Source of the DNA: Cupriavidus necator
GTDB lineage: Bacteria; Pseudomonadota; Gammaproteobacteria; Burkholderiales; Burkholderiaceae
NCBI RefSeq assembly: GCF_016127575.1
Contig: NZ_CP066018.1
Span: 3,450,001 to 3,482,000, forward strand
Reading direction: 5' to 3'
Length of the DNA stretch: 32,000 nt
Every line of letters starts with the position of its first letter. Position 1 is the stretch's first letter. The notes beneath the pieces are model-generated. The model was not told the origin of the DNA and did no database searches. It worked only from the letters and a program-made list of their open reading frames with translations. The position numbers and the translations under genes were made by a program. Of this stretch, positions 1 to 10,523 are shown in pieces.

Positions 1-758
1 AGCAGCTTGAGCACCTGGATCAGGTAATGCCCGGTTTCCATCGCGAGCGCGAAGATATTGCCGTAGGTAGACCGGTCCAGCGCATAGCGCAGGTCGAGCC
101 CGATGCGCTGGATGGTGCCGACGCTGCCGAAGGGACGCTGGTCGATCAGCTGTCCGCCCCGGATGACTTCGCCGATCAGCAGATCGCGGAAGTACTGGCC
201 CATCGCCACCATGAAGCCGACCATCTGGCGATGGAAATTGCGGTTGACCACTGCGCCGGCCGGGGCCTGCGCGGTGCCATAGTTGAAGGCGCGCCGATAG
301 GCCACCATGCGGTCCTGCCGGGTGTAGCGCAGTGGCCGCCATTTTTCGAGCAGATAGAGTCCGCGCGCGCCGGGGCCGCGCTGGATGCGCATCTTCCCCA
401 GGCGGAACAAGCGCAGCAGGGTCTCGACCACCTCAAAGATCTTCATGCGCTCGTGCTGATAGATAAAGTACAGCTCGGCAGCCGCATGCAACTGGCTCGG
501 GATGATTGAATCGTCGAAGTCAGGCTGTACATAGGGATAGCCGATCTTCTCGAAGCCGACTGCCCCCTGAGGACCGAGGCCGAGCAGATCGAAGAAGCCT
601 TCCTCCCCGCTGCCATTGGGTTTGGACAACAGTTCAGAGTAACGCTGCTCGAACTGCGAGGCGAAGGCGTCGCGCTGGTCGGGCGGCAGGCTGGCCAGCT
701 GCTCCTGCAGAAAGGTCTCCCACAGGCGCTGAATGGTTTCGGTGGTCTGGAAGTTCAT
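1..758 (-). CDS. hypothetical protein, first 252 codons only (gene runs off the left edge); last visible gene of the unknown operon
   Basis: Absent from the ORF track because it has no stop inside the window. Reverse-strand ATG at 758-756, GGAG (revcomp of ctcc at 765-768) 6 nt upstream, open to position 1. My translation begins MNFQTTETIQRLWETFLQEQLASLPPDQRDAF and continues ...AELYFIYQHERMKIFEVVETLLRLFRLGKMRIQRGPGARGLYLLEKWRPLRYTRQDRMVAYRRAFNYG... Composition is globular-looking. Start lies 21 nt after the stop of the 692-aa gene. No family recognised. Confidence 0.6.
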   Translation of the reverse strand, partial: MNFQTTETIQRLWETFLQEQLASLPPDQRDAFASQFEQRYSELLSKPNGSGEEGFFDLLGLGPQGAVGFEKIGYPYVQPDFDDSIIPSQLHAAAELYFIYQHERMKIFEVVETLLRLFRLGKMRIQRGPGARGLYLLEKWRPLRYTRQDRMVAYRRAFNYGTAQAPAGAVVNRNFHRQMVGFMVAMGQYFRDLLIGEVIRGGQLIDQRPFGSVGTIQRIGLDLRYALDRSTYGNIFALAMETGHYLIQVLKL

Positions 759-779
759 GATGCGCTCCGTCGTCGGGGG

Positions 780-2858
780 TCAGGCCTTGGCAGGGCCGCC
801 GTCGGGACCCGCAGGGCCCGCTCCGCTACCGTCGGCGCCAGTACCTTCGGTGCCGTCGAAGGCATCAGCCGCACCGGGAGTGAGAGGGGCGGGGGCAGCG
901 GCGGGCGGCACGGCGGACGTGCCCGGCGTAAGGAGTCGCCGGCGATTCCGTTCCCCCAACTCGTGCGCGATACGATCGATCGAGCCGTCCGGATGTGGCG
1001 GAATCTGCGGGGCGTGCTCGCGATAGTCGCGGTTGCGCCGGTGCCACTCGGGCACGCGCTGCTCGATCATCATCAACGCGCCGCGCTGGTATCCCGGCAG
1101 CATTCCGATATTGCCAAAGGTCCCCATATGTGGCGGACTGTGATAGACGGGGGCGAGCGTCGCATCTGCAAGCATATCCGAGGCCGGAATGCAGCCGGAT
1201 GTCATCTGTTCGACGATGGGCCGCAGTGCGCGCTCGGCCTGCAGCTGGAGCACAAGCTCGCCATGCATCAGCCAGGCGAGCGGTGTCGGTCCTGCCGGCC
1301 CCGTCAGATCGAAGTGATCAATGGTGTGCTTGTCCCATACACGCCATTGGGGCGCGGGGATGACCGGATCCTGCGGGGCGGCGAAGCTGACCCCTGCCGG
1401 GATCAGCAGTGCGGCCATTTCCGACAGCATTGCGCCCGTCGGGTTGTCGGGATTGGTGATGTCCTTCATCGGTGCAGCGGCATCGAGCCAGACATCGGGG
1501 TAACGCAGCGCCAGCGCAAAGATGGCGTGGGCGGCGGCACGCTGTTCCGGCATGCCAAACTCTTCGGTGCCGTTGGCGTAGAGATCGATTGCGCGGTCGA
1601 GATCGTGCAGGACACGGTCAAGCAGGACCTGCAGCTTGAGCGTATCGGGGTCGCAGTCGCAACGGGTGACACAGTCGATGGTCGAAGCAAATCTGCCGCG
1701 CAGACTGACCAGATTCATCAGACGCTGCTCGGCAAAGGTGGTGCCGCTCCCTCCGTAAAGGCCATACATCAGTACGCTGGGACGCGCAATGCGCAGGAGG
1801 CGCAGGCCGCCGGAAGCCTGGAAGCCGTCCACGAACAACTGCAAGGCGTCCTGAAACGCCAGCAGCGGTGGCGCGTCGCGGACCGGCAGGTGCAGCGTCA
1901 CCTGCACGAAGCGCGAGAACCGCCCGAGCATGTTCCATGCGGTCGCGCCGACCCGGCGCAGCCCGTCGCTCGAGCCTCCCGCACACAGCTGGATCATTTC
2001 GTCCATCGCACGGGAAAGGTCGGCTTCGTGGAGCAGTGCCCGCAGGTCCGACTGGCCATGCGCTTCGAGACTGGCGTGCAGGCCGCGATAGGCGGCCAGG
2101 CCTCGCGGCATCGTGTTCTGGTCCAGCGATTCCTGGGCCACGCCCGACATATTGCGCAGGCACACCAGCACCTGGTCGCGCCGCGCCTGCAGTTCAGAGT
2201 AGGGCACGCGCAGTAATGTGCGCCCGCCCTGGAAGCCTGTATTGGCGAGCGCCTCGCCCATCAACACCAGAAGCACCGCAGCCACTTCGTCGAGGCTCTG
2301 CCCGAGATTGCGATAGCTTTCGTTCAGCTCGGTGGACAGCGCGCCCACCATCCGCGCCAGCCTGGCATATTCGCCCAGGCGCCGCCGTGCGGCGAAAGCC
2401 CGGTCCCGGCTGTAGGGGTCGAGGGACTGGCGTGCCGCCGCGACGCCATCGTCGATGGTGAGGGACAGGGTCTGATGCCACCCCTCCAGCTCTGGCCGGA
2501 TGTCCTTGGTCAGGTTGCTCGCGATCAGTTGCTGCAGATCCTGCTCCACATCCGCCCGGGCCTGATCCAGATCCAGATTGGTCGCGGTCGCCTCCGGCGC
2601 AGCGATGGCCGAGGGCCGTGGAGCCGCGGTATTCAGGAACGGCAGTCCCTGAGCCTCGCCGCCGATACCCTGCGCGCGCGCGTCGGACTGGTAGCGGTCC
2701 AGCAATGCTCTCGCGATCTGCTGGGCGTCGTTGGGATCTCCGATCTTCAGTTCGCGCCGCAGCAGGGTATCGAAGGCGAGCCGCTGGCTGTTTCCGATGC
2801 TCATGGGTTTGCCGTCGGAGCCGGACGGAACCGGTTGGGGAATCGCGGGATAGGCCAT
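780..2858 (-). CDS. hypothetical protein, 692 aa, no recognised domain; Pro/Ala/Gly-rich C-terminal tail
   Basis: ATG at 2858-2856 with GAGGA a few nt upstream. The track ORF has ordinary protein-like composition, whereas the overlapping plus-strand ORFs (963-2216 etc.) are R/H/Q-rich shadow frames. Same orientation as its neighbours with short gaps (51 nt upstream, 21 nt downstream). Confidence 0.7.
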   Translation of the reverse strand: MAYPAIPQPVPSGSDGKPMSIGNSQRLAFDTLLRRELKIGDPNDAQQIARALLDRYQSDARAQGIGGEAQGLPFLNTAAPRPSAIAAPEATATNLDLDQARADVEQDLQQLIASNLTKDIRPELEGWHQTLSLTIDDGVAAARQSLDPYSRDRAFAARRRLGEYARLARMVGALSTELNESYRNLGQSLDEVAAVLLVLMGEALANTGFQGGRTLLRVPYSELQARRDQVLVCLRNMSGVAQESLDQNTMPRGLAAYRGLHASLEAHGQSDLRALLHEADLSRAMDEMIQLCAGGSSDGLRRVGATAWNMLGRFSRFVQVTLHLPVRDAPPLLAFQDALQLFVDGFQASGGLRLLRIARPSVLMYGLYGGSGTTFAEQRLMNLVSLRGRFASTIDCVTRCDCDPDTLKLQVLLDRVLHDLDRAIDLYANGTEEFGMPEQRAAAHAIFALALRYPDVWLDAAAPMKDITNPDNPTGAMLSEMAALLIPAGVSFAAPQDPVIPAPQWRVWDKHTIDHFDLTGPAGPTPLAWLMHGELVLQLQAERALRPIVEQMTSGCIPASDMLADATLAPVYHSPPHMGTFGNIGMLPGYQRGALMMIEQRVPEWHRRNRDYREHAPQIPPHPDGSIDRIAHELGERNRRRLLTPGTSAVPPAAAPAPLTPGAADAFDGTEGTGADGSGAGPAGPDGGPAKA

Positions 2859-2909
2859 GGTGATCCTCTGTTGCGTTGAACGGCGTGATGCGTGTGTTGT
2901 CGTGCGCGC

Positions 2910-4208
2910 CTACGACACCAGGTGCAATAGCGCAGGCTGCGGCTCGTACGGCGCTGCGCGCGGGCGTCGCGAGGCCATGCGCGCGCTCAGCTGGCCGATC
3001 ACGCAGTGCGCGAGGCGCCTCGGCGGGATGCGCCCGTCCACTATCGCGTAGTGCGCGGCGCTCACGAGGTGGCGGGGAGGCAGTCCGGTTTCACGTTCGG
3101 ACGCAAGCAGCCGCGCGCCTTCGCGAATGGCCGCCTCGTCGTCACGCGAGAAGGGAATGATGTCGGCCAGGGCGCGCTGGGCGAGGTTGCGGCGCGTCTG
3201 GAACGCAATCTCGTCGACGACGTCCGGGACGATGCGCGGCACGCTCAGCATCAGCGCGGCGGGTATGCGGTGCCCGGCGGAGGGCTGGTACAGGTTTTGC
3301 CAAACCCGTAACAACCGTGCGGCGTCGCGCGCGAAGCCGAGCCGGCGTAGCATTTCGGCCAGCAGGTAGACACGCAGGTAGGCGGTGGGATGCGCGCCGC
3401 CGGGCCGGTAGGTCATGGTGCGCGGCTGGGGGTGCGCGAGGAAATCCGCCATGCCCCAGGCCGCCGCCGGGCCACCGAGCAGGATGGCCGCGAGGTCCGC
3501 GAAGATCTCCTTGTGCCAGCGGCCGTAGACGGTGGCGAGGAAGGGATCGCGCGTCTTGCCCATGGTGCGCCTGAGTACGGCCTGGCGGTTTTCCCTCCAG
3601 ATGCCGAGGTCGGCCTGCAGGTTGTGGGCGACTTCATGCAGGAAGACCGATTGCCACGGCTGGTCTCGGTCCCAGGGTATGCGGATCAGCGGAAAGGGAT
3701 TGGCCTCGCCGAGCAGCCGCGACAGCGCCACGCCACGGCGCATCGTCGCGGGAGAATAGCCGTGCTCCATGTAGCAGACCGGCTTGAGCAGCGGGCCATC
3801 GAAGACGCGTGGCGCGGCGCGTCGAACGGCGCGGTAGCAGTCTTCGGCGATGACGTCGTGCGCGGCGAGCGACGGGCCGAAGCTCGTGCCCCGCTGCGCG
3901 AACACTTCGTAGAACATGCCGAACAGCCGCCGCGCGCGGTCAAGTTCGCGCTCGACCAGCGCCACGTCGATCAACACCCGTTGCGCAGGCCTCTGCTGCC
4001 AGTCCGGCAGCATCTGATCGAAGCGCGCGCGGATGCGTTGCTCGGCCTGGGCCAGCCGCGCGTTGGCCGTGTCGAAATGTTGCTGCGAAGGCGCATGGGG
4101 CATGTCTTGCGGGCGCAGTCCGACAAAGGCGTTGTCGACCCGGGCCAGCCGCGACAGGCGCGCGGACAGGCCGCGAATCTTCGCGCTCAGGAATCGCTGC
4201 AGGTTCAT
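2910..4208 (-). CDS. putative zinc metallopeptidase (HExxH motif), 432 aa, family not recognised
   Basis: ATG at 4208-4206, G-rich SD-like stretch upstream. HEVAH (residues 191-195) is encoded by revcomp of 3624-3638 in the context SVFLHEVAHNLQADLG. A possible third-ligand Glu lies in WHKEIFADLAA about 40 residues downstream (gluzincin-like spacing). No signal peptide visible. Confidence 0.7.
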   Translation of the reverse strand: MNLQRFLSAKIRGLSARLSRLARVDNAFVGLRPQDMPHAPSQQHFDTANARLAQAEQRIRARFDQMLPDWQQRPAQRVLIDVALVERELDRARRLFGMFYEVFAQRGTSFGPSLAAHDVIAEDCYRAVRRAAPRVFDGPLLKPVCYMEHGYSPATMRRGVALSRLLGEANPFPLIRIPWDRDQPWQSVFLHEVAHNLQADLGIWRENRQAVLRRTMGKTRDPFLATVYGRWHKEIFADLAAILLGGPAAAWGMADFLAHPQPRTMTYRPGGAHPTAYLRVYLLAEMLRRLGFARDAARLLRVWQNLYQPSAGHRIPAALMLSVPRIVPDVVDEIAFQTRRNLAQRALADIIPFSRDDEAAIREGARLLASERETGLPPRHLVSAAHYAIVDGRIPPRRLAHCVIGQLSARMASRRPRAAPYEPQPALLHLVS

Positions 4209-4246
4209 GGCCGGCCCCCGTTCCGATCGGTGTCACTGGCGACGAT

Positions 4247-5323
4247 TCATGCGCCACGGACGATGATGGTCACCGGCCCACGCACATGCATGCGACGGCC
4301 GCCGCAGTGTGGGCAGCCGACGCCATGGCCGCCATAGTTGCGGGACTGGGCGCGCGGGCCGGTTGCCGCGACACGGCGCGCTAACGGCGCTATCGTGCGC
4401 GCGGCGGCCTGCGCGCCGCGGCCGCGCGGCGTGGCCCGGCGCGCCGCAGGCACCAGCGGCTGCGACAGCTGGCGCGCCGCCTGGGGTCGCCGTGCCACGG
4501 CTTGCGCGGTGCGGGTGGCGGTACGCACAGCGGCGCGCGGCGGCAGCTGGCGCGCCTGCACTGTGCGTTGCGTGGCGCGCACCGCGCGTGCAACCGCGCG
4601 TGCCGCGGGGGCGCCGCTGGTGCGGGTGGCCGTTCGCACCGCCTGGGCCACGCCGCGCACCGCGGCGCGACGCACGGCGGGCGCGGCGCGCGCGACCGAG
4701 GGGAGGGCGCGGCGGAGCACCATGCCGGCCAGCACCGGCGCGGCGGCGTCGATCGCATCCTCGTCGAGTCCATCCACCAGTTCGTCGAAGGTCTCATACT
4801 CGTCGGCGCCGTCGGCGAGCATGCGCCCGGCCACATTGGCGATGCGCCCGATCAACTGCGCTTGTGGAAGAGGAATCATGCTGGCGATCGGTCCCACCAC
4901 ACGCGCGGCCTGCCCAATGCCTTGCCCCACGCGGCGCGCGACATTGACCGCGCCGCTCGCCATGCGCCGCAGGCGGCGGAAGAACTCGTCGGCGTCACCG
5001 GCTTCCATGGCATCGGCCACGGCGTCCTCCATGCCGTCCAGTTCGTCGTAGGCGGCCTCGTATTCGTCGACGGAGTCGATGCCGTCCACGTCCTCGTAGG
5101 TATCGCCCTCGTCCTCGCCTTCGTCATACTGGGTCGCGCCGCCTGCGAGCACGCGGCCGACGAAGTTGTCCTCGCCTTCATCCCATTCGTCGTAGCTGTC
5201 GTTGCCCTCGTCGGATTCGTCGTACCCGTCGTCGTGCATCAGGTCCATCGCGCTGCCTCGAGTGGGGCCCTCGGCGGCTTCATCCATCAGCTCGTCCATT
5301 ACATCGGCCTCGAATCGGTCCAT
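4247..5323 (-). CDS. lysine-free charge-bipolar protein A, 358 aa (acidic N-terminal third, Arg/Ala-rich remainder)
   Basis: ATG at 5323-5321 with AAGGAG 6 nt upstream. By my hand count about 45 D/E in the first ~113 residues, then about 40 Arg and no Lys anywhere. Paralogous to the upstream gene: shared DEFF/DEFL-RRL block, an internal acidic DG(L/I)DE block and a C-terminal GPVT motif. Ends ...CPHCGGRRMHVRGPVTIIVRGA. Confidence 0.65.
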   Translation of the reverse strand: MDRFEADVMDELMDEAAEGPTRGSAMDLMHDDGYDESDEGNDSYDEWDEGEDNFVGRVLAGGATQYDEGEDEGDTYEDVDGIDSVDEYEAAYDELDGMEDAVADAMEAGDADEFFRRLRRMASGAVNVARRVGQGIGQAARVVGPIASMIPLPQAQLIGRIANVAGRMLADGADEYETFDELVDGLDEDAIDAAAPVLAGMVLRRALPSVARAAPAVRRAAVRGVAQAVRTATRTSGAPAARAVARAVRATQRTVQARQLPPRAAVRTATRTAQAVARRPQAARQLSQPLVPAARRATPRGRGAQAAARTIAPLARRVAATGPRAQSRNYGGHGVGCPHCGGRRMHVRGPVTIIVRGA

Positions 5324-5359
5324 GGTGTGCTCCTTGGTGTGCGGCTCAAGTTGATTGGC

Positions 5360-6502
5360 TCAGCGGGGTGCGACCGTCAGCGTCACAGGTCCGCCGAAGT
5401 GGAAGGTCCGGGGTCTTCTCGGCCGGATGGTGCGCACGCCGCGGCCGATGCCTGTGGGGCGGGCCATCGGCCCAGGGGGAGCGGGTTGCGCCAGGCGATC
5501 GAGCATGCGGGGATTGGCGACGACGCGGCGCGCGGCCTGGGGCAGCCCACGGCGCAGCGCCCGCGCGGCCTGGTTCGGCGGTTGCTGGCGTTGGCGTGCG
5601 ACGCGGGTGGCGGCGCGCGCCAGCGGTGCCAGGGCGCGTGTGGCCCCGGGTCCGCCTGCGCGCGCCAGTTCGCGTGCCGCGCTGGCGACGCCGCGCACGA
5701 GTTGCCGCCGGCCCGCGGCCGATAGTTGCGCCACATTTGACAGGCCGAGTCCGCGCGCGGCGGCTCGCGTGGCGAGCGCCACCGCTGCGGGCAGGGCCTC
5801 GTCGATGCCGTCGTTGGCATAGAGATCGATCATCGCGTCCATGCCCTGGCTCGCGCTGGCCTGCGAGGCGAGCAGTTGGCTGATCTGCGCGAGCATGTCC
5901 TGAGTGCCGCCGCCAAGGGTGCCGAGGGCGCCCGCCTGCCGGCGCGCCTGGCGCGCCGCGTGGCTGACGTCCCCGGCAAGGCGGCCAGCGGTTTGCAGGC
6001 CGCGCGCAAGGTTCGGCGCGCCCAGCATGCGCGCAAGGGCGGCCGCCGCGTTGGCGGTGGGGGAAGCAGCCTGCGCCACCCGGCCCACCTGTCCCGCCAC
6101 GCGGCCCGCCCTTCGTGCGACGCCCTGCATGCGTCCGGCCTGGCGGCTTATCACCCCGGCCGCGCGGCCGAGGCCGCCCAGCAGGCGGCCGAGAAATTCG
6201 TCGTCGTCGGCGGCGTCGAGGCCGTCGGCTACTTCTTCCTCGAAGGCGTTCCATACGGCCATCTGGTCGATGTGGTCGCCGATGTCGGTGTCTTGCGCGG
6301 CCGCCATATCGGCCGAATCTGTCTCGTCCGTGAAAGCATCGTCGCCCCCGTCCTCGTCAAACGGGGACGCGGTCCGCGCCAAGCCCGATTGCAGCGCGGC
6401 ATGATCGGCGGCGTCGTCGGCCGTGTCGCCGTAGTCCGTGCTACTGGCGTATTCGTCCAAACTGAGGTCTTCCATCAGGTCATTGTCGAATTGGTCGCTC
6501 AT
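5360..6502 (-). CDS. lysine-free charge-bipolar protein B, 380 aa, paralog of protein A; first gene of the operon
   Basis: ATG at 6502-6500 with GGAGG upstream. About 34 D/E and one Arg in residues 1-102 (hand count), then an Arg/Ala/Gly/Gln-rich region with heptad-like units (ARRAGRV AGQVGRV). No Lys in 380 aa. Ends ...RPRTFHFGGPVTLTVAPR. Confidence 0.65.
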   Translation of the reverse strand: MSDQFDNDLMEDLSLDEYASSTDYGDTADDAADHAALQSGLARTASPFDEDGGDDAFTDETDSADMAAAQDTDIGDHIDQMAVWNAFEEEVADGLDAADDDEFLGRLLGGLGRAAGVISRQAGRMQGVARRAGRVAGQVGRVAQAASPTANAAAALARMLGAPNLARGLQTAGRLAGDVSHAARQARRQAGALGTLGGGTQDMLAQISQLLASQASASQGMDAMIDLYANDGIDEALPAAVALATRAAARGLGLSNVAQLSAAGRRQLVRGVASAARELARAGGPGATRALAPLARAATRVARQRQQPPNQAARALRRGLPQAARRVVANPRMLDRLAQPAPPGPMARPTGIGRGVRTIRPRRPRTFHFGGPVTLTVAPR

Positions 6503-6956
6503 CGCATGCCTCCACGCGGCCGTGTGTCATGCCGCTGTCATGGCCACTCTAGATGCGGCGAGGTGCCCGCCGCATCGCCCGATGCCTCTGGCACGGCGGG
6601 ATTCGCGCGACCGGCCGGGCGCGACAGGACCGGCGCATCGGGGTACGGCACAACGGGCCCGCAAGGCGGGGCGTGCCGCCTTGCCGTAGCCGGAATGGGG
6701 TAGCCTGCTTGCGCTCTCGCTTTTTCCTTGCAAAGTCACCGGCCATATGCCAAAACAAAGAAGTTTCGAGCGGCCTGTGTCAGGGAAAAGTGCAGCGGGG
6801 GCACTGCAGCCTGACTCAGGGGAACGCAGCTTGTCAGCGCGCACGGATACGAATGCGGACTCGAAGCCGGCAGTTGAGCTGTGCCGTCATGCGGGCATCC
6901 GGCGTGCCGTTCGCTCGTCGTCGTGTTGCCAGGCGGAACGACAAGAAGGAAAAACC
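6503..6956. promoter_or_regulatory. 454-bp divergent intergenic control region between the unknown operon and the LuxR-type gene
   Basis: No convincing ORF. Contains the only AT-richer patches in this part of the window (about 6715-6765). Both flanking genes start here and point outward. Promoters are not mapped; this is positional inference only. Confidence 0.4.
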
Positions 6957-7493
6957 ATGCTTCACAGATTCCGCCGGGGGGCGCTGCTGGCACCGTACAG
7001 CGCATTAGGGGATTCGCCCACGGCCGGGTACGGGGCGGCGGCAATCCGGTCGGGCAGTTGGGGGAGAGAGGTCTGCGAGGTCGAACTGGGCGGCCGGCGA
7101 TGTCGGTTGCTGCAGGTAGGCGGCCTGCGTGCGCCACGCGGGGGGGCGTACGGGGAAGGCGAGATTACCCAGTTCGAGTTCGAGGGGAACTATTACGCCC
7201 TGATCGCTGATCCGGTGGCCGTGCCGGCGGCCGCGCCGCTGCCGGCCGGCGAGCCGCGTCCCGCCGTCCCCGATGTGCGAAGCGTGTTGACCGTGCGCGA
7301 ACTGCAGATCGTGCAACTCGTCTGCATGGGCTATTTGACTAAGCAGATCGCGGGCCGGCTTCATATCAGCGAATTTACCGTCCGCTCGTATCTCAAGACG
7401 ATCTACTGCAAACTCGGTGTCCGATCGCGCGCGGCGATGGTGTTCTGCTATATGCAGGCATGCGCTGGAGGCGCGGACGGCGCCCAAACCTGA
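6957..7493 (+). CDS. LuxR/GerE-family helix-turn-helix transcriptional regulator, 178 aa, with unrecognised N-terminal domain
   Basis: C-terminus LTVRELQIVQLVCMGYLTKQIAGRLHISEFTVRSYLKTIYCKLGVRSRAAMV is a classic GerE/LuxR HTH. I chose the ATG at 6957 (AGGA about 8 nt upstream) rather than the track start at 6747, whose extra 70 residues look like non-coding read-through. Confidence 0.8.
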   Translation: MLHRFRRGALLAPYSALGDSPTAGYGAAAIRSGSWGREVCEVELGGRRCRLLQVGGLRAPRGGAYGEGEITQFEFEGNYYALIADPVAVPAAAPLPAGEPRPAVPDVRSVLTVRELQIVQLVCMGYLTKQIAGRLHISEFTVRSYLKTIYCKLGVRSRAAMVFCYMQACAGGADGAQT

Positions 7494-7572
7494 CAGCGGT
7501 CCGGTATCGGCTAACCGGAAGGAACGACACGATTTTTCAGGCAGACATCGACGGGTGCACGAAAGACTGCAT

Positions 7573-9441
7573 TCACAGGAACCCGATCGAGAACCAAGGC
7601 ACCAGTGTCAGCAGCAGCAAAGCCACCAGCAGCGCCGCCATGTGCGGCCAGACCCGCGGCATGGCCACGTCAGGCGAGACCCGCCCGATGGCGCAAGCCG
7701 CGTAGAAGCCGACGCCGAACGGTGGCGCAAACAGGCCCAGGCCCATGGCGAAGATCACCACCATGGCGTAGTGGACTTCATGCACGCCGACGATCTTTGC
7801 GATCGGGAACAGAAGCGGGCCGAACAGCACGATGGCCGGGATGCCTTCAAGCAGGCTGCCGAGCAGGACGAATGCCAGCGCCGACACCAGCAGGAATCCG
7901 GTCTTGCCGCCCGGCACGGCGGACATGATCTTCACCAGGTCGCCGGCGAAGCCCGATTGCGTCAGCGCCCACGCCATTGTGGTGGCGCAGCCGACGATCA
8001 GCAGGATCGCGCCGGACAGCGCAGCGGTATCGACCAGCATCGGGTAGATGCTGCGCCAGTGGAAGCGCCGGTAGACGAAGATGCCGGCGAGCACTGCGTA
8101 GAAGATGCCGATGGTGGACACTTCGGTCGCGGTGGCCACGCCTTCCACTACCGCGGTGCGGATGATCACGGGCAAGGCCAGGGCCGGCAGGGCCACCAGC
8201 AGCGATTTCACGATCACGGCGCGCGTAGGGCGTACCACCGTGCTCATGTCTTCCTTGCGCGTCTGGAACCAGCCTACGCAGGCCATCATGACCAGGCCCA
8301 CGGCCGCAGGCATCAGGCCGCCGATGAAGAGCGAGGTGATCGACACACCGGTGACCGATCCCACCGTGATCAGCACGATGCTGGGCGGGATCGTTTCGGA
8401 CATCGCGCCGGACGCCGACAACAATCCGATCAGGTCACCGTCCCTGGCGCCGCGCTGCTTCATTTCCGGGAACAGCGCGGGCGCGACCGCTGCCATGTCG
8501 GCTGCCTTTGCGCCGGAGATGCCGGACACGATATACATCGCGCCGAGCAGCACGTACTGCAGGCCGCCGCGCACATGCCCGATCAGGTTGGCGAGGAAAC
8601 TGATCATGGCGCGCGCCAGTCCGGTCATCTCGATCAGCGCGCCCAGGAAGACAAAGAGCGGCACGGCGAGCAGGATCAGGTGCGACATGCCTTCCTGCAT
8701 GCGGTTCGGGACGATCGACAGCGGGGTCGTGGTGGTGAAGGCCAGGTAGCACATGGTGGCCAGGCCGAAGGCAAAGGCGATCGGCACGCCAATGGCGACG
8801 CATACCACCAGCACCAGCAGGAAGAAGATCACCAGGTTGATGTTGCCGAGTTCTGCCAGCACCGGGGACAAGGCCCACAAGATTGCCCCGATTACGCCCA
8901 CCGCCACGCCGCTGACGAGAACCCGTTTACAGTCGGCCTGCGCGACCAGCCGGATGACGGCCGTCGCCAGCATCAGCAGCGCGCCGGCGAGCACCGCCGC
9001 GGAGCGATAGCCCTCGCTGATCTCCAGCGTTGGCGACGAGACTTCGATGTGTTCACTCAGGTGCTCGTAGGCCGGCCAGACCAGCATCAGCAGGAACGCC
9101 ACCACCAGCCACATGCCAAAGGCATCGAGCCACGCGCGCCTGCCCGGCGCCAGGTCCTTGATGAAGGTGGTCAGTTGCATATGCGCGCTGCGCTGCAGCG
9201 CAATGATGGCGCCCAGCATGGCCAGCCAGAGGAACAGGATGCTGGCCAGTTCATCGGTCCAGGGGATCGGCGCATGCAGGACATAGCGCGCGAAGGCGCC
9301 ACCGCCCAGGATGGCGATCTCGGCAAGCACGATCAGCGCGGCCGGAATCTCCACGGCCCAGCGCATGGCGCGGCCCCACACGGCAAGGGCGGCGCCTGGT
9401 TCCTGCGGTGCGCCAGCGAAGGTTTCGGCAGTGTGCTCCAT
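7573..9441 (-). CDS. TRAP transporter fused permease (DctQ-like small plus DctM-like large subunit), 622 aa
   Basis: Highly hydrophobic multi-span sequence with DctM-type blocks (ISGISGAKAADMAAVAPALFPEMKQRG, LLEGIPAIVLFGPLLFPIA). Start set at ATG 9441-9439 (MEHTAETF..., GGAG upstream). The track ORF runs on to 10074, but that part overlaps the upstream binding-protein gene. Confidence 0.9.
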   Translation of the reverse strand: MEHTAETFAGAPQEPGAALAVWGRAMRWAVEIPAALIVLAEIAILGGGAFARYVLHAPIPWTDELASILFLWLAMLGAIIALQRSAHMQLTTFIKDLAPGRRAWLDAFGMWLVVAFLLMLVWPAYEHLSEHIEVSSPTLEISEGYRSAAVLAGALLMLATAVIRLVAQADCKRVLVSGVAVGVIGAILWALSPVLAELGNINLVIFFLLVLVVCVAIGVPIAFAFGLATMCYLAFTTTTPLSIVPNRMQEGMSHLILLAVPLFVFLGALIEMTGLARAMISFLANLIGHVRGGLQYVLLGAMYIVSGISGAKAADMAAVAPALFPEMKQRGARDGDLIGLLSASGAMSETIPPSIVLITVGSVTGVSITSLFIGGLMPAAVGLVMMACVGWFQTRKEDMSTVVRPTRAVIVKSLLVALPALALPVIIRTAVVEGVATATEVSTIGIFYAVLAGIFVYRRFHWRSIYPMLVDTAALSGAILLIVGCATTMAWALTQSGFAGDLVKIMSAVPGGKTGFLLVSALAFVLLGSLLEGIPAIVLFGPLLFPIAKIVGVHEVHYAMVVIFAMGLGLFAPPFGVGFYAACAIGRVSPDVAMPRVWPHMAALLVALLLLTLVPWFSIGFL

Positions 9442-9503
9442 CGTCGTGTCTCCATGCGGCACGCGCTGAGGCGCGGCTTCTCGTTCAGTCTGGTGGTATG
9501 GCG

Positions 9504-10523
9504 TCAGGCCAGGCGGCCCGCGTATTTCTCGAGCTTGGCCCAGGCTTCCTCGCCGTACTTCTTCTTCCACTCGGTGTAGAAGCCCGCGCTTTGCAGCAAC
9601 TGGCGGAAGGGCGCGGGATCGGGCCGGTTCAGCGCGATGCCGAGCTTGCCCAGTTCCGCCTGCGCATCGACATTCAGCCTGGCGATGTCTTCGCGCTGGC
9701 GCAGCGCCGCGCTGTTGAAATGGGTGGCGATGGTCGCCTGCACTTCCTTGGGCAGCGCCTGGAATTTCCTGGCGTTGCCGAAGATGAAGTGGCCATCCCA
9801 GGTATGCGCGGTAAGCGAGCAGAACTTCTGGACTTCGTACAGCTTGGCGCTGCGGATCAGGGCCAGCGGGTTTTCCTGGCCGTCCACCACCCGCGTCTGC
9901 AGCGCGGAGTAGAGCTCGCCGAACGGAATGGCGGTGGGCGCGGCGCCAAGCGCCTTGAACATCGAGATCCAGAGCGGGATGCCGGGAACGCGGATCTTGA
10001 AGCCCTTCAGGTCCGCAGGGGTCTGAACCGGCCGGCTGGCCGAGGTGATATTGCGGTAGCCGTTGTCCAGGCACTTTTCAAACACGTGCAGGTTGACCTT
10101 GCCCAGCGCTGCCCGCACGTGCGCGCCGACGTCGCCATCCATGGCCGCCCAGACCGTGGCGTAGTCCTTGAAGGCAAAGGCGACACCGTTGATGCCGGCG
10201 GTCGGCACCAGCGTCTGCAGGTTGGTGCCGGCAGTGGACATGAAATCCATGGCTCCGGCGCGGGTCTGCGAGATCATGTCGGGCTCGCTGCCCAACTGGC
10301 TGGCGGGATACACCTGGAGATCCACCTTGCCGCCGGTGTCCTTGCGGATGGCCTCCGCGGCTTCCTTGATGCGCAGTGTGCCCGGGTGGTCCGCAGGAAA
10401 CGCCGTGCCGTACTTGAGCCGGATGCCGGCGCCCTGGGCAAGGCCGTGGCGTACCGGCAATGCGAGCGCGAGACTGCCTGCGGCCAGGGCGCCGAACTGG
10501 CGGCGTGTCAGGGAGAAGGTCAT
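9504..10523 (-). CDS. TRAP transporter substrate-binding protein, DctP family, 339 aa
   Basis: N-terminal signal (MTFSLTRRQFGALAAGSLALALP) and DctP-family blocks (KGFKIRVPG, GELYSALQTRVVDGQENPL). Sits immediately upstream of the permease gene. Confidence 0.9.
   Translation of the reverse strand: MTFSLTRRQFGALAAGSLALALPVRHGLAQGAGIRLKYGTAFPADHPGTLRIKEAAEAIRKDTGGKVDLQVYPASQLGSEPDMISQTRAGAMDFMSTAGTNLQTLVPTAGINGVAFAFKDYATVWAAMDGDVGAHVRAALGKVNLHVFEKCLDNGYRNITSASRPVQTPADLKGFKIRVPGIPLWISMFKALGAAPTAIPFGELYSALQTRVVDGQENPLALIRSAKLYEVQKFCSLTAHTWDGHFIFGNARKFQALPKEVQATIATHFNSAALRQREDIARLNVDAQAELGKLGIALNRPDPAPFRQLLQSAGFYTEWKKKYGEEAWAKLEKYAGRLA

Follow-up and report, generated by a model that had tools for sequence, protein, structure and literature searches.

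Anionic and cationic segments are combined within one polypeptide in the propeptide-neutralised pro-defensins and cathelicidins, and in HMGB1 with its acidic tail. Among the proteins that organise organelles, CsoS2 of alpha-carboxysomes and McdB are disordered scaffolds, while encapsulins use C-terminal cargo-loading peptides. Here we describe an operon of eight genes (g1 to g8) in Cupriavidus necator, which brings together two "bipolar" proteins with an acidic N-terminal and a basic C-terminal half (g1 and g2), a predicted zinc metallopeptidase (g3), and a divergently transcribed gene for a GerE/LuxR-type regulator. Its promoter-proximal part, g1 to g5, lies at the left end of a 32,000-nucleotide stretch of the chromosome (contig NZ_CP066018.1, positions 3,450,001 to 3,482,000), hereafter the window. 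We regard the operon as a strong candidate for a cytoplasmic protein machine not described before, and that it forms a real, conserved and uncharacterised module we hold with high confidence. The more specific proposal stands, in our judgement, at an even balance: a new bacterial cytoplasmic machine in which a zinc peptidase of new fold would organise or process charge-segregated bipolar proteins, along with g5, a protein conserved between phyla to the extent of core housekeeping proteins. The machine would have its own LuxR-type activator, and it would be maintained across six or more phyla in no fewer than two architectures.

That the module is real shows in the conservation of the cluster. 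A scan of one genome per species gave 164 matches, a minimum figure since the scan depends on exact peptide patterns, and the best 80 loci were analysed, each component being counted only at those loci whose contig reaches far enough to show the neighbour concerned. These loci span Beta-, Gamma- and Alphaproteobacteria, Cyanobacteria (including a Gloeobacter-related lineage), Candidatus Kuenenia of the Planctomycetota, Desulfuromonas and Desulfobacterales, with an additional homolog in Polyangiaceae, and they share the gene order bipolar gene(s), g3, g4, g5, g6, (g7) and g8, the last encoding a protein of the DUF4438 family. Immediately upstream of g3, 61 of 63 loci have a bipolar gene, both exceptions being start-calling artefacts; g4 is present in 70 of 71 informative loci, g5 in 64 of 65, g6 in 58 of 65 (with divergent copies in several of the rest) and DUF4438 in all 58, and g7 is recognisable in four. 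A LuxR-type gene is found near the cluster in 35 of the 39 fully visible loci, upstream and divergent in Burkholderiales, downstream and codirectional elsewhere. Across phyla, sequence identity amounts to 57-91% for g5 (all phyla sampled), 58-84% for g3 and 56-80% for DUF4438, but only 24-57% for g6 in the same loci, which argues that the divergence is old and that g3, g5 and DUF4438 are under very strong constraint. Homologs of the cluster proteins number in the hundreds to thousands. Since the neighbouring genes differ between genomes, the module is autonomous. Overall, this is a real, ancient, tightly co-inherited and syntenic module, present in at least six phyla. An initial annotation, made from the sequence of the window, had proposed a candidate novel system with a dedicated divergent regulator; that central reading is upheld by the near-perfect co-occurrence in these 80 loci, in which the LuxR gene travels along, and the family and fold searches brought nothing against it.

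Those searches place seven of the eight proteins in no known family, g8 alone having one. The products of g1 to g5 gave no meaningful match in Pfam, NCBIfam, PADLOC or PHROGs, and g6 and g7 none in Pfam or NCBIfam. The matches of the regulator in PADLOC were at the level of its helix-turn-helix (HTH) domain, and those obtained in PHROGs with g1 to g5 and the regulator were all non-significant (E>=0.0046). Nothing was returned by sequence searches of the PDB with single proteins or with profiles of g3, g4, g5 and g6, and no paralogy among g3, g4 and g5 was detected by hhalign. When each ortholog and distant relative was scanned against Pfam, only isolated chance matches and one fusion to an Amidase_2 domain appeared. 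The claim that no product of g1 to g5 belongs to a characterised family therefore stands against four libraries of hidden Markov models (HMMs), sequence and profile searches of the PDB, and Foldseek with a very confident model of g3; in the rest of the unit, the last gene, g8, does belong to a Pfam family, DUF4438. No publication on the operon was found in open-access full text, and the module is not described by current family or fold libraries. Automated record names were of little help: "tail tape measure" (attached to g1 in some records), "PD-(D/E)XK", "Tyr recombinase" and "DUF3800" found no HMM or profile support, nor did a PIN/nuclease reading of g6 suggested by its conserved acidic residues, and "Peptidase MA-like" is the sole database name that agrees with reproducible evidence. 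An origin as a phage-derived apparatus (tail, tailocin or extracellular contractile injection system) was rejected on the PHROGs result, the absence of g5 homologs from 50,697 phage records, and the lack of a significant match of the g3 fold in BFVD. Neither BMC-H/BMC-P nor HK97-type shell genes were found among the eight proteins (Pfam) or the conserved neighbours.

The sole recognisable catalytic signature in g1 to g5 is the HExxH motif of g3, already noted in the initial annotation. A HMMER search with g3 recovered 985 relatives, including full-length ones at 21-37% identity, and 50 of them were aligned. Among these 50 sequences, down to 21% identity, H191, E192, H195, P143 and P274 are invariant, and E234, D238 and H273 nearly so. 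An AlphaFold (AF2) model built on this alignment is very confident (predicted local distance difference test, pLDDT, 93.9; predicted template modelling score, pTM, 0.91). In the model, strands 144-148, 154-156 and 174-178 precede the HExxH helix (187-201), the candidate ligand E234 is carried by a downstream helix (222-245), and large helical N- and C-domains flank the strand/HExxH-helix region; the predicted layout is that of gluzincins. A Foldseek search with the model returned no significant neighbour, the best matches having E=0.39 in the PDB (TM<=0.2) and E=0.16 in BFVD, and M48 peptidases were among the marginal fold matches in both libraries (BepA, E=3.5; a pithovirus M48, E=0.16). No Pfam, NCBIfam or PDB sequence match was found, the 50-sequence profile included. 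On the combined evidence of motif and model, g3 is probably a zinc peptidase of a new family. The protein is also very basic, with a net charge of +21 and an isoelectric point (pI) of 10.9, a property confined to its close family; the superfamily median is -6 (alignment A1).

The bipolar proteins that adjoin g3 show a charge pattern which persists across phyla, the N-terminal third carrying -20 to -57 and the C-terminal half +8 to +39. The initial annotation had described their basic parts as Arg-rich domains. These are basic throughout, but Arg is not fixed: low-GC cyanobacteria and Kuenenia have Lys in its place, which argues that charge is what is selected, and "basic" is the better term. 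These proteins are more than low-complexity sequence, and their module order is fixed. An N-terminal FExDVMDDL motif is followed by an acidic linker of variable length and by the boundary motif EEAVADALDAxDxDEF with its invariant Phe (in g1, F103 is invariant and A97, D99, D101 and E102 near-invariant in alignment A5). Beyond the boundary come a basic helical domain (invariant P238, R246, R265 and V269), a variable stretch rich in Arg and Gly, a CxxC in some members and, in most type-1 orthologs (that is, of the form found in the window), an extreme C-terminal strand of the pattern R-x-hydrophobic-x-hydrophobic-x-GPV-x-[IL]-T-[IV]. Many distant loci have a single bipolar copy; as most of these single copies resemble g2, the g2 type is probably the ancestral form. 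A 14-nucleotide imperfect tandem repeat (3.7 copies; window 4396-4447) within g2 mirrors a repetitive Ala/Arg-rich part of the protein.

Distant relatives of g3 led to a second type of cluster, found on a metagenomic contig (L087:6558-17971) and on a 2.4-Mb Paraburkholderia replicon (L088:3766-13222). Type 2 likewise encodes a pair of bipolar proteins (-42/+42 and -35/+31, for instance), a homolog of g3 (fused in L087 to the Amidase_2 domain), a protein of about 170 amino acids (aa), another of 650-935 aa, a clear g5 homolog (E=5e-51 to 3e-56) and, in L087, one or more GerE regulators. An M20 peptidase gene stands at the operon end, where type 1 has g6, g7 and DUF4438; these three and g4 are lacking, and profile comparison by hhalign found no homology of g4 or g6 to the type-2 proteins in equivalent positions. 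The parts common to both types, taken with these unrelated equivalents of g4 and g6, argue that the deep core consists of the bipolar protein(s), g3, g5 and a GerE regulator. In the bipolar proteins of type 2, acidic repeats, a DEF[FL]xxL boundary and the basic domain at the centre are all retained, but there is no C-terminal GPV strand; this strand thus co-varies with the type-1-specific genes. At about 24% identity, more remote g5-like domains are found as the C-terminal half of proteins of about 600 aa encoded on plasmids of Tolypothrix (L089:6608-16779) and B. pyrrocinia (L090:1323-17480). Their operons include an S8 peptidase, a peptidoglycan-binding protein, a muramoyl-alanine amidase of 1254 aa, DUF3467 and many unannotated genes, and no bipolar proteins; they may represent a third, related system.

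The remaining products also bear opposed charges that hold across orthologs. The basic proteins are g3, g7 (+16) and DUF4438 (+15 to +18), and the acidic ones g4 (-13 to -16) and g6 (-12). In g4, the N-terminal 440 or so residues are conserved, with 35 invariant columns in alignment A6, and the tail is variable and rich in Pro, Ala and Gly. An AF2 model of g5 was set aside (pLDDT 41), its alignment being >=75% identical throughout. The g8 product is a full-length DUF4438 protein (PF14505, 183.2 bits against a cut-off of 24.9, E=2e-54; PF20999, 159.6 bits against 27, E=4e-47) and matches TM1086 of Thermotoga (PDB 3DCL, 3N99) over its whole length (E=3e-65). TM1086 was a structural-genomics target, with 5 or 30 chains per crystal entry, and no published function for it or for DUF4438 was found in open-access full text. 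The cluster version is basic, with Arg-rich N- and C-terminal extensions, whereas stand-alone DUF4438 proteins are acidic: the cluster median is +14.5 (+9 for the domain core only), compared with -9 (pI 5.5) in 120 stand-alone homologs. This inversion is specific to the system and points to binding of a polyanion, with the acidic half of the bipolar proteins as the nearest candidate.

No component has a transmembrane-like or signal-like segment (maximum 19-residue Kyte-Doolittle hydrophobicity <=1.8), and no secretion genes are conserved near the cluster, so that the module is probably soluble and cytoplasmic. The same observations disfavour an earlier suggestion that g1 and g2 are a secreted or injected effector pair.

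Peptidase genes recur around DUF4438. A trypsin-like (S1) protease gene lies on the same strand, 30-1400 nucleotides downstream of DUF4438, in seven type-1 loci (L073, L080-L083, L085 and L013), namely the alphaproteobacterial ones, Ca. Kuenenia, a metagenome-assembled genome (MAG) of Chromatiaceae and one of Burkholderiaceae. An apparent fusion of DUF4438 to the S1 protease in L080 proved to be a low-complexity tail. Among stand-alone copies, the DUF4438 gene of Thermotoga is followed 5 nucleotides downstream by a Rhomboid gene (L091:6001-7525), and that of Zhenhengia is flanked by genes for an Rce1-like CPBP protease and a Peptidase_S11 (L094:5044-8339); a third context, in Caloranaerobacter, was uninformative. 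Such adjacency to intramembrane or cell-wall peptidase genes may offer a functional lead for the orphan TM1086 family. The peptidase theme is an association of genes only, though a consistent one.

The features of the locus that fall within the window are collected in Table 1. The four complete minus-strand open reading frames (ORFs) and the fifth, g5, which is truncated at the window edge, all lie where the initial annotation had placed them, with intergenic gaps of 36, 38, 51 and 21 nucleotides from g1 to g5 and a Shine-Dalgarno (SD)-like element at each of the five starts (GGAGG, AAGGAG, GGGGG, AGAGGA and ACGGAG); GC content at third codon positions (GC3) is 0.78-0.86. The five had been read as one transcription unit, and no convincing internal terminator was found (4 terminator-like sites in 1-7600, against a chance expectation of 3.5). 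The unit is larger than supposed: followed leftward on the complete chromosome, it goes on through the rest of g5 (361 aa in all), g6 (288 aa), g7 (224 aa) and g8 (351 aa) and ends where it meets a convergent cluster, making eight genes rather than five (protein accessions CAJ93042-CAJ93049 for g1 to g8). That cluster, sbm2/trkA2, corresponds to H16_A1949-A1957 (PMC3734047), from which, by gene order and with the numbering anchored on the neighbour sbm2 (H16_A1949), the operon is H16_A1941-A1948 and the regulator H16_A1940 on chromosome 1 of C. necator H16. No relevant structured RNAs, tRNAs or tandem repeats were found. A lineage-specific unannotated ORF of about 166 aa separates g5 from g6 in eight loci (L012, L015-L017, L021, L025, L027 and L028), which belong to the Roseateles/Rhizobacter group and to related MAGs.

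Table 1. Features of the operon and its control region within the window (positions counted from the first nucleotide of the window)
Feature	Position	Strand	Description
GerE/LuxR-type regulator (H16_A1940)	6957..7493	+	178 aa; Pfam GerE, SD-supported start
Divergent control region, g1 to LuxR gene	6503..6956	.	454 bp
Imperfect dyad GTGCCAGAGGCATCG-GG-CGATGCGGCGGGCAC	6563..6594	.	Over -35 position; candidate regulator site, inverted repeat I2
-10-like TAGAGT	6546..6551	-	Part of conserved CTAGAGT; ~45 nt upstream of g1 ATG
g1 (H16_A1941, CAJ93042)	5360..6502	-	Bipolar protein, 380 aa; g1-type paralog without CxxC (alignment A5)
g1 acidic N-terminal module, residues 1-104	6191..6502	-	Ends in boundary motif DAxDxDEF
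g1 C-terminal strand motif R-T-F-H-F-G-G-P-V-T-L-T-V	5369..5410	-	Conserved pattern
g2 (H16_A1942)	4247..5323	-	Bipolar protein, 358 aa; g2-type paralog with CxxC
g2 acidic N-terminal module, residues 1-115	4979..5323	-	Start motif MDRFEADVMDEL, acidic linker, boundary motif DAVADAMEAGDADEFF
g2 CPHC (residues 337-340) and C-terminal strand motif RRMHVRGPVTIIV	4259..4315	-	
g3 (H16_A1943, CAJ93044)	2910..4208	-	432 aa; predicted gluzincin-like zinc metallopeptidase, new family
HEVAH motif of g3, residues 191-195	3624..3638	-	Predicted zinc-binding/catalytic motif
Candidate third zinc ligand E234 of g3	3507-3509	-	Near-invariant Glu
g4 (H16_A1944)	780..2858	-	692-aa acidic protein, type-1 specific
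g5 (H16_A1945), first 252 of 361 codons	1..758	-	Hyper-conserved, predicted mostly helical, core component

The small divergent gene encodes, as had been predicted, a GerE/LuxR-type protein on the plus strand (C-terminal HTH, PF00196 GerE, 53.4 bits against a cut-off of 23.5, E=2e-14). Its N-terminal 110 or so residues are unassigned, and no autoinducer-binding, REC or other recognised domain was found there in Pfam or NCBIfam; residues 1-170, in the numbering of that scan, were without a match, the HTH region alone being recognised. A classification as a quorum-sensing LuxR or NarL/FixJ type was therefore rejected, the N-terminal autoinducer-binding or receiver domain not having been found. 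The start at 6957, preceded by AAGGA, is also that of the NCBI record, and it makes the control region exactly 454 bp, the length first reported; the longest ORF for the gene begins at 6747 (248 aa), without an SD element.

Upstream of the first bipolar gene, unbiased k-mer enrichment identified CTAGAGT(G) (p~1e-30). TAGAGT occurs in 22 of 61 upstream regions, mostly from Burkholderiales and Rhodocyclales, with a 17-nucleotide spacer to a weak -35. The dyad that overlaps the -35 has a core, ATCGGGCGAT, common to Cupriavidus and Burkholderia loci; at this position other lineages carry dyads of their own (ATCGCGCGAT in Aromatoleum, CAAAACACGTTTTG in Roseateles). TAGAGT, a weak -35 and an overlapping dyad together have the appearance of an activator-dependent promoter, a layout which fits dedicated control by the adjacent LuxR-type protein; we infer that the dyad is a candidate binding site for this regulator, which would control the operon. 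Nearer the LuxR gene lie two 11-bp palindromes, CCTGTGTCAGG and CCTGACTCAGG, 36 bp apart (window 6774-6820). Paired CCTG-N3-CAGG palindromes were considered as a LuxR box and rejected as not conserved, being present in one of 60 upstream regions. Their absence from the equivalent region of the 59 other loci makes them specific to C. necator, and they could serve another regulator or LuxR autoregulation.

The surroundings of the operon are ordinary. Directly left of the window in the genome, and convergent to the operon, H16_A1949-A1954 (L001:16044-22079) encode methylmalonyl-CoA-mutase-like (sbm2), Pnap_2097/LnmK-family (TIGR04099), flavoprotein (trkA2), MSMEG_0570-family (TIGR04042), AIRS-type and GNAT products, a cluster of the "nitrogen-starvation response" type. 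The A1949-A1957 cluster is strongly induced in the polyhydroxyalkanoate (PHA)-production phase of H16 (PMC3734047). Co-regulation of the operon with this neighbour finds no support in that one RNA-sequencing data set. To the right (window 7573-10074 and rightwards; L001:1-5286) lie a fused DctQ/DctM tripartite ATP-independent periplasmic (TRAP) transporter, DctP, a mannitol-dehydrogenase-family enzyme and a GntR/FCD regulator, that is, the ordinary catabolism, of sugar acids or polyols, that the initial annotation had seen there.

How might such a module work? The mechanism we prefer, tentatively and at somewhat short of an even chance, is a protease-gated switch. The bipolar proteins would be made as charge-neutralised pro-forms, in which the acidic N-terminal half masks the basic helical C-terminal half; the basic g3 (+21) could dock electrostatically on the acidic half and cut in the region of the conserved DAxDxDEF-x-x-RL boundary. 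Once freed, the basic domain would bind a target, which could be nucleic acid or another polyanion, or else the acidic partners g4 and g6. In type 1 this domain may be anchored by its C-terminal GPV-x-I-T-I strand to a type-1-specific partner, the leading candidate being DUF4438, beta-rich and turned basic. The released acidic fragment might be cleared by accessory peptidases, such as M20 in type 2, S1 at some type-1 loci and perhaps DUF4438 itself, and the LuxR-type protein would activate the weak -35 promoter upon a signal. In favour of the proposal we count the conserved and strongly constrained unit, the peptidase signature of g3, the recurring peptidases, the conserved electrostatic design and the activator-type promoter. 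Since the boundary motif and basic domain occur in types 1 and 2 and the C-terminal strand in type 1 only, this distribution is also counted in its favour.

Several considerations weigh on the other side. Every mechanistic step of the switch is conjectural. Both halves and both termini of the bipolar proteins carry conserved motifs, which fits a permanent scaffold at least as well. The g3 protein could be a pseudo-peptidase or act on another substrate, and its basic charge is limited to its close family. Three proteins, g4, g5 and g6, which include the most conserved one and make up >40% of the coding capacity, have no role in the model, and the adjacency of DUF4438 and peptidase genes comes from three contexts. 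Finally, A1940, A1941, A1943, A1945 and A1948 are absent from the differential-expression lists of the one RNA-sequencing study of H16 consulted (PMC3734047).

Nearly as likely as the switch, although doubtful when taken by itself, is a scaffolded multi-protein assembly such as a complex, a condensate or a compartment-like body. The bipolar proteins would then be permanent diblock scaffolds, the acidic half recruiting g3, g7 and DUF4438 and the basic half g4 and g6, with g5 as a self-associating structural subunit and the peptidase serving maturation or turnover. The unusual conservation of g5 across phyla, the docking-like motifs at both bipolar termini together with a conserved central domain, and the complementary, conserved charges of the components, including the inversion in DUF4438, are all consistent with such an arrangement; so is the near-perfect co-occurrence, as for obligate partners, and the chain numbers of the TM1086 crystals hint at an oligomer. 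On the other hand, no component resembles a known shell, cage or filament protein, type 2 is wholly without g4, g6 and DUF4438, so that only a small core could form a common assembly, and the invariant catalytic motif of g3 suggests an enzymatic rather than a purely structural role. The initial annotation had raised both a masked cationic domain cleaved by the HExxH protein and charge-driven assembly; the two are compatible with the data and constitute the leading candidate explanations.

A conflict system is improbable in comparison. In an anti-phage or abortive-infection module, or a protease-activated toxin, the basic half would be the toxin, restrained by the acidic half until the peptidase releases it on a danger signal, and recurring proteases are indeed a feature of gasdermin-type and other protease-triggered defence systems. 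The patchy distribution of the cluster bears signs of horizontal transfer, the copies in Massilia and an uncultured betaproteobacterium, for example, being no nearer to those of the other Burkholderiales than the cyanobacterial copies are, and variants lie on large plasmids or chromids. Yet g1 to g5 drew no match from PADLOC or PHROGs and g5 has no phage homologs; identities of 60-90% across phyla are unlike those of fast-evolving defence genes; the neighbours are ordinary metabolic genes that vary by genome, not defence islands; and expression under particular conditions, not constitutive surveillance, is what a dedicated activator and a weak promoter suggest.

Very improbable is a role in cytoplasmic processing of peptides or cell-wall fragments, with g3, DUF4438 or M20 and the Amidase_2 fusion as catabolic hydrolases and the rest as accessories. 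It would draw on the AmpD-like Amidase_2 domain fused to g3 in one type-2 locus, on the M20 peptidase of type 2, and on the S8 peptidases, amidase and peptidoglycan-binding protein encoded in operons beside the remote g5-like domains. The cluster, however, has no conserved association with a transporter or another metabolic enzyme, type 1 has no amidase, and the bipolar proteins, universal and always adjoining g3, would be left unexplained. A chance arrangement or spurious ORFs, of which high-GC DNA gives many long ones, is already refuted by the gene order conserved in 80 loci from several phyla, the GC3 values and the abundance of homologs.

Constraint to this degree, with one of the proteins about 75% identical from phylum to phylum, is normally a sign of machinery engaged in many interactions at once. 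C. necator H16 is a genetically tractable industrial model, in which deletion, LuxR-driven induction and reconstitution are directly feasible. Whether the output is a proteolytic switch, a conflict system or charge-driven assembly, its elucidation would give annotation to thousands of proteins now called "hypothetical", TM1086/DUF4438 among them.

Set beside described systems, the parts of the module are each partly familiar. The g3 protein has the HExxH of the M48/M56-type gluzincins of clan MA(E) and, in its model, a small beta-sheet ahead of the active-site helix; some 40 residues beyond HExxH it has a near-invariant Glu and Asp (HKEIFAD), a candidate equivalent of the ExxAD of M48/M56, but the helical N- and C-domains of g3 have no counterpart, and g3 is soluble and very basic, with no membrane anchor. 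The regulator resembles LuxR "solo"/GerE activators in its C-terminal GerE HTH, in adjoining its presumed target operon and in the dyad-overlapped weak -35, and differs in having no recognised N-terminal domain, the regulation itself being presumptive. Against CsoS2, McdB and encapsulin systems, the cluster has no shell, Rubisco, encapsulin or ParA-type gene, and GPV-x-I-T-I is unlike known targeting peptides; the bipolar proteins are nevertheless alike in being of low complexity and highly charged, with short terminal motifs that possibly dock on partners from the same operon. Compared with pro-defensins, cathelicidins and HMGB1, to which they have no sequence relationship, they are cytoplasmic proteins of 280-420 aa with motifs in both halves, and their cleavage is a proposal; what they have in common is a strongly anionic and a strongly cationic segment held together in one chain, with a protease gene, in this cluster, next door.

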